IMG/VR virus record: IMGVR_UViG_2778261503_000007
Length of the DNA stretch: 4,505 nucleotides
Strand: one strand, 5' to 3'
Source of the DNA: a virus
Taxonomy: Duplodnaviria; Heunggongvirae; Uroviricota; Caudoviricetes
Shown: positions 2,371 to 4,069 of the stretch, piece after piece
Layout of the letters: the number at the start of each line of letters is the position of its first letter
Numbering within the stretch: position 1 is the stretch's first letter
Position numbers and translations under genes: made by a program
The notes under the pieces: generated by a model
Told to the model about the DNA's origin: nothing
Databases searched by the model: none
The model's input: only the letters and a program-made list of their open reading frames with translations

Positions 2371-2727
2371 TTAATGCATTATGGGGTAAATCTTCACCCC
2401 CAGACGTCCACCAGATACTGGCTGACCACGAACGATATTGATTTCATCAAACTGCTCATCGTCCATTAACACTCCCGCATGCGTCAGCGCATCCAGCGGT
2501 GCTTTCAGGATATTGTCCAGGTCGCGACGACGCTTATCCGGTGGCTCTGCAATCACCTTTATCGCCAGCCTTCCGGACAGGCTTAATTTCAGCTGCTGCT
2601 GGCGAACAATAAGCGCCACAGCCCGGCGATAACGCTTTCCCTCCTCCGAGATAAAATATGTGCTGCCACGGCGTCGCCAGTAAGTGTTCACCGTCGGCGG
2701 GTAAGGTAAAACCAAATCTATGAGCAT
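2371..2727 (-). CDS. rusA: crossover junction endodeoxyribonuclease RusA (Holliday junction resolvase), 118 aa
   Basis: Product shows RusA-family hallmarks: N-terminal LPYPPTVNTYW and acidic core PDKRRRDLDNILKAPLDALTHAGVLMDDEQ. ATG start at 2725-2727 preceded by AAGAGGTGA SD. Stop TAA at 2371-2373, 14 nt before the Q start. Position directly upstream of Q is typical of lambdoid nin regions. Confidence 0.85.
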   Translation of the reverse strand: MLIDLVLPYPPTVNTYWRRRGSTYFISEEGKRYRRAVALIVRQQQLKLSLSGRLAIKVIAEPPDKRRRDLDNILKAPLDALTHAGVLMDDEQFDEINIVRGQPVSGGRLGVKIYPIMH

Positions 2728-2739
2728 CAGTCACCTCTT

Positions 2740-3789
2740 TTACCCAAGCACGCCAGTTGCAAAGGCGTGATCAAGAAAACGAAAAATTAAATCAACCTGA
2801 GAACCATGCTTTTCTTCGAACGCCAGCGGATCCGCATGAAGCTCGTTGTGATGCTCCCGACACAGCGGTAGCGTGAAAATATCGTGAGATTTTGTCCCCA
2901 TTCCGCCCTGACCATGACCAATCAGGTGATGGGGATCGTCGGCTGGCTTACCACAACACGCACACGGCTGTGTCTTCACCCAGCGTGTGTATTTCTCGTT
3001 AACCCAGCGGCGACGTTTAGGTCGTTTCATGAAAGATTCCGGAGACTCAGGATCAACGGCAATGCTGACCACCGTCTTTTCCTGTGGTGGGTTCTGTTGC
3101 TGGTGGGCGTGAAGCAGCGGCGTAAGATTTTTTGTGCGCTGTTTCAGTATGCTGGTGGCGGTCTGCTCTCCCGGTACGATGTCGCTTTCACGGTACATTG
3201 AGCGGATTTTTTCCGCACGCAACCCCAGCGAACGACGTAATACCGCTTCCGGTAGCGCGTCCGCCACCTGATTGCGGACCGCCCACCAGGATAATTCAGC
3301 CAGAGATAATTCACGCTCCTGCGTACCGCTTATTGCGTGACCGATGACGTCAATCATCCATGCTGACAGGTTTTGATGAGCAAGTTGCTCGAGTGATTCG
3401 GATGTCTGGTCACGCAGCTGGTTGTCGCAGTGCCAGCACAACACCATTGCGCCGGTACCATAACGGTGAATGACGGTTTCGCTGTGATGATAATCGCCGT
3501 GTGGCCACTGGCAGGATTTAATATGGCGCAACAGCCAGTCAGACAATGCACCAGCACCACCAGCAGCACGAATCACCCGTGCGTTACTGAAAAACGGCAG
3601 CAATGTTTTGTCTTCCACCAGCGGCTGGCGAGCGGCAGGAACGACCCCGGACGGCAGATTACGCATGCTTTTCGGTTCCGGCTCCACCAGTAACCGGGTA
3701 TTGTGGAATACCGGCATGGATTCACGGCCCGGCTTAACGATCACCAGCCCGAGTTCCGGTACCAGAACAGGTCGAAGTAATACCCGCAC
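2740..3789 (-). CDS. ydfU: YdfU-like DUF968 family phage protein with C-terminal HNH-like Cys/His motif (349 aa)
   Basis: Long minus-strand ORF with GTG start at 3787-3789 preceded by GGAGGT SD (plus 3793-3798 reverse complement). Length and overall sequence match my recollection of E. coli Qin-prophage YdfU. C-terminus carries CACCGKPADDPHHLIGHG...LCREHHNELH, typical of HNH-type zinc-binding nuclease folds. Sits immediately upstream of rusA and Q. Confidence 0.72.
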   Translation of the reverse strand: MRVLLRPVLVPELGLVIVKPGRESMPVFHNTRLLVEPEPKSMRNLPSGVVPAARQPLVEDKTLLPFFSNARVIRAAGGAGALSDWLLRHIKSCQWPHGDYHHSETVIHRYGTGAMVLCWHCDNQLRDQTSESLEQLAHQNLSAWMIDVIGHAISGTQERELSLAELSWWAVRNQVADALPEAVLRRSLGLRAEKIRSMYRESDIVPGEQTATSILKQRTKNLTPLLHAHQQQNPPQEKTVVSIAVDPESPESFMKRPKRRRWVNEKYTRWVKTQPCACCGKPADDPHHLIGHGQGGMGTKSHDIFTLPLCREHHNELHADPLAFEEKHGSQVDLIFRFLDHAFATGVLG

Positions 3790-3790
3790 G

Positions 3791-4069
3791 TTACCTCCAG
3801 ATGCGTTGCTGGAATGTGCGGGACGGACGCGGTGGGCGTTCGGAGTAAGGCAATCTGACTGAGATTATCCAGTGACGGTAGTCGAGGCTAAGGGCTTTTT
3901 TAACCTCGTATCCGCGCCTGCGGTAACACTGAATTATCCATTCAGCCTGCTCTTCAGTGCATGGTGGATGCTGGAACCAGTCCGATTTGAATGCATGAAA
4001 ACGCCGTCCGCACCTGCTGGCAAAGACGGCAGAATCATCAGAATTGTGTAATTTGGTATCGTGCGCCAT
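3791..4069 (-). CDS. hypothetical small phage protein, 92 aa from the first ATG (MAHDTKLHNSDDSAVFASRCGRRFHAF...)
   Basis: Minus-strand ORF. The six-frame ORF 3791..4180 starts nominally at a TTG; the first ATG is codon 38 (plus 4067-4069). The stop TAA (3791-3793) lies 1 nt before the GTG start of the next gene and inside that gene's GGAGGT Shine-Dalgarno, indicating translational coupling. Product contains a Cys/His cluster (C..H..C). No family recognised with certainty; by Qin-type synteny (rem-ydfU-quuQ) it could be rem-like, which is inference only. Confidence 0.5.
   Translation of the reverse strand: MAHDTKLHNSDDSAVFASRCGRRFHAFKSDWFQHPPCTEEQAEWIIQCYRRRGYEVKKALSLDYRHWIISVRLPYSERPPRPSRTFQQRIWR

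Follow-up and report, generated by a model that had tools for sequence, protein, structure and literature searches.

A predicted HNH nuclease domain in the DUF968 protein YdfU, encoded beside the resolvase RusA in lambdoid prophages

Introduction

A stretch of 4,505 nucleotides from a virus (Caudoviricetes; IMG/VR record IMGVR_UViG_2778261503_000007), which we will call the window, contains a ydfU-type gene between an open reading frame (ORF) of 92 amino acids and rusA, which encodes a Holliday junction resolvase. We found that YdfU carries what looks like a functional, zinc-stabilised nuclease domain of the His-Me finger (HNH) type and of the DUF968/YbcO group. This assignment is well supported by sequence conservation. 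Judging by profile comparison, the nearest relative of this domain with a solved structure is the RecA-dependent nuclease Ref of phage P1. The explanation that we consider probable is that these genes are the end of a ninR-type operon, in which YdfU, as a nuclease like Ref or YbcO, would act on recombination or replication intermediates and RusA would resolve them.

Both the nuclease assignment and the neighborhood with RusA and Q were already published in 2017 (PMC5714182). Jablonska et al. assigned DUF968, with YdfU mentioned by name, to the same group of His-Me finger proteins (group 7) as DUF1364 (YbcO). As neighbors, they gave RusA, Q, and antirepressors, and, drawing on the analogy with NinG and RecA-dependent nucleases, they suggested a role in recombination. 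Curtis et al. (2014) reported HNH domains of DUF968 fused to Orf, Erf, Rad52, or RusA (PMC4118853). As it stands, our finding repeats a published bioinformatic inference. Our additions are modest: we connect YdfU structurally to Ref, we report an N-terminal module of YdfU that was undescribed, and we observe that the 92-amino-acid ORF is real, under selection, and not annotated in Escherichia coli K-12 MG1655.

Results and Discussion

The C-terminal domain of YdfU

YdfU is a member of DUF968: residues 160–346 match PF06147 with 258.4 bits (E = 4e-77; the gathering cutoff is 27.8). A search of 1.8 billion representative proteins gave 99 relatives of YdfU at E ≤ 1e-30, of which 32 were aligned, and full-length homologs reach down to about 26% identity. 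The alignment shows two conserved Cys/His modules. The C-terminal module has the motif C276-x2-C279 ... H287 H288 ... D303 ... P308 ... C310-R-E-H313-H314 ... H318, and in homologs down to 26% identity, each of these residues is either invariant or conserved to 90% or more (a few divergent members have lost them). H288 and D303 are among the invariant ones and H287, H314, and H318 among the others, so the catalytic and metal-ligand positions of a His-Me finger are in place. The C-terminal region is also the most constrained part of the protein: the ratio of nonsynonymous to synonymous polymorphism (pN/pS) is 0.07 for residues 251–349 and 0.14 for the whole gene.

In the AlphaFold model of YdfU (mean confidence, or pLDDT, of 87), the C-terminal module forms a beta-beta-alpha core. 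When we compared profiles, the C-terminus matched Ref (hhalign probability 77%, P = 2e-5, 36% identity over 56 columns) and YbcO (P = 8e-5), which supports remote homology to both. An earlier reading of the window, made from the sequence alone (the original prediction), had described an HNH-like C-terminus, and the predicted core, the conserved motif, and the matches to Ref and YbcO bear this out. Searches of PDB with the YdfU sequence and with a full-length profile found nothing meaningful.

A second Cys/His module in YdfU

The other conserved module is at the N-terminus. It has invariant C93, C118, W119, and D122, within the motif CQ..Y[C/H]H...LCWH[H/C]DN, and a beta hairpin and a helix are predicted at residues 105–125. 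At two positions of the motif, cysteine and histidine replace each other between lineages, which is the expected behavior of zinc ligands. This modelled beta-beta-alpha element probably binds zinc. The module lacks a Pfam family, and a scan of 30 sequences at E values of up to 1 gave no recurrent match. It aligns in register with the C-terminal module, but not significantly (BLASTP E = 2.2; hhalign P = 0.014, 3% probability), and it did not match YbcO. From the alignment, the N-terminal module may be a second beta-beta-alpha finger that has degenerated.

We also considered that the N-terminal module might be a portable domain, but its fusion partners were tail-fiber, tail-tip, portal, and capsid proteins (P0262, P0310, P0313, P0245, P0291, and others), which is uninformative. 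Most likely, these fusions are prophage deletions or assembly errors or chimeras instead of real architectures.

The middle of YdfU is helical and is followed by a disordered basic linker. A natural variant of 230 amino acids from Citrobacter (L169 3566–4258) retains the N-terminal module and the HNH domain while lacking residues 141–260, so the middle region is dispensable. (This variant also lacks the second cysteine of CxxC. The gene order at its locus is DUF1367, small protein, RusA, DUF968, Q.)

Gene junctions and the transcription unit

The small ORF, ydfU, rusA, and a Q-type antiterminator gene are read in one direction with minimal spacing (Table 1). On the minus strand, the small ORF runs into ydfU as ...TGG AGG TAA C GTG CGG...: just one nucleotide (C) separates the stop codon (3793..3791) from the GTG start (3789), and the last two sense codons of the small ORF (TGG AGG) form the GGAGG Shine-Dalgarno sequence of ydfU, with the TAA abutting it. 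The stop codon of ydfU (TAA, 2742..2740) is followed by 12 nucleotides, AAGAGGTGACTG, and then by the ATG of rusA (2727); the spacing between rusA and Q is 14 nucleotides. The junctions that the original prediction described, with the stop of the small ORF one nucleotide from the GTG of ydfU and at its Shine-Dalgarno sequence and with rusA 12 nucleotides after ydfU, are all correct, and the first of them, as TGGAG(G/A)TAA(C/T)GTG, is kept in all 80 of the close relatives described below.

Table 1. Features of the gene cluster and the adjacent antiterminator gene (positions in the window)
Feature	Position	Strand	Basis or remark
Gene for conserved small protein, 92 amino acids	3791..4069	-	PGAP "hypothetical protein"; phrog_1212
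ydfU-type gene, 349 amino acids, DUF968 family, GTG start	2740..3789	-	Pfam PF06147, E = 4e-77; phrog_96, E = 5e-175
Shine-Dalgarno sequence of ydfU (GGAGG)	3794..3798	-	Read from sequence
Spacer between ydfU and rusA, 12 nucleotides, with rusA Shine-Dalgarno sequence AAGAGGTG	2728..2739	-	Read from sequence
rusA, 118 amino acids, Holliday junction resolvase	2371..2727	-	Pfam RusA, 64.3 bits
Q-type late antiterminator, 273 amino acids, next gene of the same transcription unit	1535..2356	-	Pfam Antiterm PF03589, E = 8.5e-55; annotated so in ZH063
N-terminal module of YdfU, residues 1–155	3325..3789	-	Alignment; AlphaFold secondary structure
C-terminal His-Me finger (HNH) nuclease domain of YdfU (predicted), residues 262–349	2743..3006	-	Motif at nucleotides 2836–2964
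Promoter-like site, TTTACA, 16 nucleotides, TATACT	4121..4148	-	Consensus match only; about 50 nucleotides upstream of the small ORF

Within 2371–4069, no terminator-like site with a T-run was seen; a terminator-like hairpin lies downstream of Q (1454..1435, minus strand). Co-transcription of ydfU with rusA, at the end of an early operon, is well supported. Promoter-like sites are not more numerous in the window than the shuffled expectation, so the site in Table 1 is a weak candidate.

RusA scores 64.3 bits against PF05866 (the cutoff is 22.8), and it is 40% identical over 109 residues to the RusA of prophage DLP12 (PDB 1q8r), with the RRRDLDN and DD motifs aligned. RusA has the catalytic acidic residues D69, D71, and D90; these three, as well as N72 and K75, are invariant in our alignment of RusA proteins.

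Linkage of ydfU and rusA

We examined gene order in two sets of loci: a close set of 80 relatives from IMG/VR, whose YdfU is at least 91% identical, and a broad set of 80 species-level loci from across the Enterobacterales, whose YdfU is 42–95% identical. In the close set, rusA follows ydfU on the same strand in 78 of 80 loci, and the small ORF is nearly always present (one locus keeps only its 3' end). In the broad set, 60 of 80 loci have rusA on the same strand as ydfU. It lies upstream of ydfU in most genera and downstream in Escherichia. The two genes are directly adjacent, with an ATGA overlap, in 18 of these loci, and in most of the non-adjacent cases, all that lies between them is an antirepressor gene (Rha/KilAC, KilA-N, or ORF6N). 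When we centered the analysis on rusA instead, ydfU was next door in 72 of the 77 loci that could be assessed and ybcO in 3, although close relatives dominate this sample.

Because the adjacency outlives a reversal of gene order, because it is mostly antirepressor genes that intervene, and because DLP12 has a parallel arrangement of ybcO and rusA, the association of YdfU with RusA is real. It is not obligate.

(Three contigs with ydfU loci of the enterobacterial type are labelled as a metagenome-assembled genome (MAG) of Veillonella parvula (L086, 85% identity), as Vagococcus sp. (L122, 49%), and as a MAG of an "Actinomycetes bacterium" (L127, 50%). These labels are probably errors of binning or contamination.)

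A proposal for YdfU and RusA, and the evidence against it

Ref is a RecA-dependent nickase whose disordered basic N-terminus is required for DNA binding (PMC4330346), and Gp16 of phage PhiNM1, an HNHc_6 protein, is a nickase that is stimulated by RecA (PMC12817073). By analogy, we propose that after induction of the prophage, YdfU introduces nicks or cuts into the DNA of intermediates of recombination or replication. Its substrate might be RecA-coated D-loops, as for Ref and Gp16. Cutting by YdfU would feed recombination-dependent replication, and RusA would then resolve the resulting Holliday junctions before packaging. This sequence of events is plausible. We infer that YdfU would be active as a nuclease on such substrates, perhaps with a dependence on RecA, and that it may cooperate, physically or functionally, with RusA or with the small protein. 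We rank the four other explanations that we considered, which are given below, lower than this one.

Several results weigh against our proposal. As to the domain, the match of YdfU residues 271–319 to HNHc_6 (PF16784; 22.5 bits) is below the cutoff of 26.6; a Pfam scan of YdfU gave no match to the model for the Ref family (PF16786); and the best Foldseek matches for YdfU in PDB were HNH domains, but none were significant. We found no biochemical study of YdfU or of any other DUF968 protein in the literature, which agrees with the remark in the original prediction that the biochemical role of this family is not established. As to the gene order, ydfU occurs without an adjacent rusA in the Qin prophage of K-12 and in the loci L050, L084–L087, and L168 (in Qin and several of the others, ydfU directly precedes Q), and some phages have rusA with neither ydfU nor ybcO as a His-Me partner, so cooperation with RusA is not obligatory. 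Furthermore, the sequence distances of the small ORF, the N-terminus of YdfU, and the C-terminus of YdfU are uncorrelated (rank correlation rho of 0.13–0.14), which means that there is no sign of co-evolution and that these segments reassort independently. Nucleotide diversity is lowest exactly at the junction of the small ORF and ydfU, which fits a recombination joint in a mosaic genome. Finally, lambdoid phages broadly share the gene order of this region, so ydfU and rusA may be adjacent by common descent and as parts of one operon, and not because they function together.

So we also considered that these genes are just neighbors in a dense phage operon, with an inherited gene order, and that YdfU has a nuclease job unrelated to RusA. 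Besides the loci that have one gene without the other and the free reassortment of the segments, two observations favor this explanation. First, overlapping or nearly overlapping genes are the rule in the equivalent region of DLP12, where ninE, ybcO, rusA, and ylcG overlap by 4–8 nucleotides; tight spacing is normal in lambdoid early operons, so the coupling alone says little. Second, in the broad set, the gene that precedes Q is nearly always ydfU, across several unrelated types of Q (at least four unrelated types come after ydfU in different prophages), which suggests a positional slot. Against it, the adjacency to RusA survives a change of order, from rusA-ydfU in most genera to ydfU-rusA in Escherichia, the genes between separated copies are mostly mobile antirepressors, and the related YbcO family is likewise paired with RusA. 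We see coincidental proximity as a real but lesser possibility. The suggestion in the original prediction of a functional unit with RusA thus fares well in that RusA is a persistent neighbor and less well in that the linkage is not obligate and the tight spacing is generic.

Another explanation is that YdfU is directed at the host: it might damage or condense host DNA and block host replication early in lytic growth, as Gp16 does. Gp16 has the HNH motif in common with YdfU; its overexpression is toxic, and it suppresses replication of the host (PMC12817073). Ref is described as increasing the lethality of ciprofloxacin in one report (PMC4713147). But YdfU lacks the NinB/Orf-like N-terminal domain of Gp16, and ydfU is at the end of a delayed-early operon, beside a resolvase, instead of among immediate-early takeover genes. 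We consider a host-directed nuclease to be quite unlikely.

The small protein

The 92-amino-acid ORF is a genuine gene: its sequence variation shows purifying selection in the prophages of E. coli. For 43 different DNA copies, the annotated frame has a pN/pS of 0.27, as compared to above 1 in the other sense frames. By segment, pN/pS is 0.68 for codons 1–26, 0.15 for codons 27–70, and 0.10 for codons 71–92. The variable residues 1–26 are predicted by AlphaFold to be disordered; residues 27–74 form a predicted beta-alpha-beta-beta core, with pLDDT of about 90; and residues 75–92 are a basic tail, LPYSERPPRPSRTFQQRIWR, which is highly conserved and is modelled with low confidence.

The family is small (151 clusters by a single-sequence search and 353 by a profile search). 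It is confined to Escherichia and Shigella and, as versions of 66–68 amino acids, in Citrobacter, Klebsiella, Pluralibacter, Enterobacter, Buttiauxella, and others; the shorter versions start at the equivalent of residue 27. Only W31, Y49, L60, W67, L73, P74, R81, and W91 are invariant across the family. There is no conserved cysteine (C37 is replaced by leucine in distant members), and no set of Cys/His ligands such as a zinc-finger or nuclease-type protein would have is conserved across the family. The label "small Cys/His ORF" from the original prediction fits this one copy only.

Scans of the small protein with Pfam, NCBIfam, and PADLOC gave no match, and its sole match is to the unannotated phrog_1212. 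A sequence search of PDB gave no meaningful match either, no known fold was recognized for it, and public sources call it only "hypothetical" or "prophage protein." (The defense models of PADLOC did not match YdfU or RusA either.) It had been suggested that both the small protein and YdfU process nucleic acids. This survives for YdfU, for which Pfam gives DUF968 and the weak HNHc_6 match, and not for the small protein, which Pfam does not recognize and which shows no sign of nucleic acid processing or zinc binding.

The genome of K-12 MG1655 has the same ORF upstream of ydfU with the same 1-nucleotide junction (NC_000913.3, complement of 1644306–1644584; L002 4307–4585, minus strand). The encoded protein is 78% identical to ours and is missing from the annotation. 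It is not Rem, as the annotated rem is a different ORF further upstream. Nor did we find a relationship to NinE: a comparison using hhalign found nothing.

The small ORF accompanies ydfU in just 16 of the 80 species-level loci, which belong to Escherichia and to a few lineages related to it. In Citrobacter, Pluralibacter, and others, the order is small protein, rusA, ydfU. The expectation that the ORF would be conserved upstream of ydfU homologs was therefore too broad. Conversely, a DUF968 gene was present in every locus that we inspected for the small protein. The conserved and disordered basic tail suggests a docking peptide, and the small protein may be a lineage-specific accessory factor that acts via this tail.

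Could the small protein instead be an inhibitor of YdfU? Under this explanation, the two would be akin to an immunity protein or antitoxin and its nuclease, with translational coupling maintaining a fixed ratio. The stop/start arrangement with its shared Shine-Dalgarno sequence is invariant in Escherichia, and the constant presence of DUF968 and the docking-like tail would also make sense. However, this seems inconsistent with the absence of the small protein from 64 of the 80 species-level loci (co-occurrence is not obligate), with the rusA gene that separates the two in Citrobacter, Pluralibacter, and others, and with the lack of co-variation between the small protein and YdfU. PADLOC, Pfam, and structural comparison did not match the small protein to any immunity or antitoxin family. 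An inhibitor-nuclease pair strikes us as very unlikely.

Prophage context and other features of the window

A prophage that E. coli CFT073, ZH063, and related strains carry matches positions 78–4428 of the window with 100% identity. In ZH063, the segment is flanked by replication and other early genes and hokD on one side and by tRNAs and by lysis and terminase genes on the other. Similar segments are found in mEp460 and in many phages that convert their hosts to production of Shiga toxin 2 (Stx2). The segment is the promoter-distal end of the early-right operon, equivalent to ninR of lambda, of a lambdoid prophage of E. coli of the Qin/Stx-phage type, and its genes are ordinary and abundant prophage genes.

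This context bears on another possible role for an HNH protein, which is to associate with terminase and aid in cos cleavage and packaging, as for gp74 of HK97. HNH proteins of the gp74 type are common in cos phages (as cited in PMC12817073). But their genes adjoin the terminase genes, while ydfU lies upstream of Q in the early region, separated from terminase in the intact prophage by about 7.8 kb and by more than a dozen genes; also, the nearest relatives of YdfU are Ref and YbcO, not gp74-type proteins. We give this explanation almost no weight.

The hairpin downstream of Q is followed by three tRNA genes (1391..1142, minus strand) with the anticodons CAT, TCG (Arg), and TCT (Arg). The CAT tRNA is Met according to ARAGORN and Ile according to PGAP in ZH063. 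We take this arrangement to resemble the pR'/tR' region and the ileZ-argN-argO tRNAs of Stx phages. The Q protein has DnaJ-like CxxCxGxG zinc-finger repeats inside its Antiterm domain (PF00684, 29 bits, below the threshold).

Both ends of the window are termini of insertion sequence IS1 in the same orientation: positions 1–77 are its last 77 nucleotides and positions 4429–4505 are its first 77. A 4.35-kb fragment of a prophage is thus bracketed by two direct copies of IS1, and genomes of the CFT073 type match positions 78–4428 only. No complete E. coli genome in the collection that we searched carries the right-hand IS1 junction. The left copy truncates an iraM-like gene, whose 3' part is at 78–230 on the plus strand. 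We also noticed a match to the small RNA family STnc100 of Rfam (RF02076) at 256–445 on the minus strand (132 bits, as compared to a threshold of 47), which ends at a strong terminator-like hairpin (286..265). Lastly, an AT-rich stretch contains an ORF of 117 amino acids (678–1031, minus strand), which is putatively coding; it is not annotated in ZH063, and Pfam and PADLOC gave no match.

Implications

If YdfU is a RecA-dependent nickase like Ref and works with RusA, a function could be assigned to a prophage gene that is very common: many prophages of E. coli, Stx-converting and otherwise, have it immediately before Q. This would also account for the repeated association of RusA with DUF968 and DUF1364 proteins, and it would make these proteins a second natural class of RecA-guided nucleases. 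We speculate further that YdfU-type proteins are a widespread counterpart of P1 Ref in enterobacterial phages, that the N-terminal zinc module directs the HNH domain onto RecA filaments or branched DNA, that the small protein, of 66–92 amino acids and with its invariant basic tail, is an accessory or regulatory subunit, and that together with RusA they form a "cut and resolve" module. This extended proposal is unlikely to hold as a whole. If it did, a function would be known for a y-gene of K-12 as well as for a conserved gene that the MG1655 annotation lacks.

Comparison with known systems

The closest known locus is the Qin prophage of K-12, whose YdfU (b1560) is a DUF968 protein of the same length and 85% identical to ours. 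It too is preceded by the 92-amino-acid ORF with the 1-nucleotide junction, and it lies directly before Q. Unlike in the window, there is no rusA between ydfU and Q, and Q is of a different type (40% identity).

YbcO of DLP12 and phage 82 (DUF1364, PF07102; PDB 3g27) is a zinc-containing His-Me protein that is likewise encoded directly upstream of rusA and near Q. However, YbcO belongs to another Pfam family and has just 96 amino acids, or the nuclease domain alone, while YdfU adds about 260 residues at the N-terminus. Also, ybcO is preceded by ninE, whose product is unrelated to the 92-amino-acid protein.

P1 Ref (PF16786; PDB 3plw) resembles YdfU in having a basic disordered segment ahead of the nuclease core (PMC4330346). 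But Ref does not have a structured N-terminal domain, and YdfU falls outside of PF16786. Furthermore, ref is a stand-alone gene under the control of C1, while ydfU is in a nin-type operon with rusA.

PhiNM1 Gp16, from a phage of Staphylococcus aureus, is an early-expressed protein with the same motif layout (CxxC ... H ... C-R-E-H-H ... H). It is an HNHc_6 protein, and many close homologs of YdfU carry this label, although YdfU itself matches below the threshold. Gp16 differs in its N-terminal domain, which is NinB/Orf-like, whereas the N-terminal module of YdfU has no relative that Pfam or Foldseek could detect. The host phylum and the gene neighborhood are different as well.

NinG (or Rap) of phage lambda is a structure-specific His-Me endonuclease that is encoded in the nin region, shortly before Q, and that serves phage recombination. 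In function, Rap is generally seen as the counterpart of RusA. NinG is in group 24 of the His-Me finger classification (PMC5714182), and we found no sequence or family match between it and YdfU. YdfU, by contrast to Rap, co-occurs with RusA.

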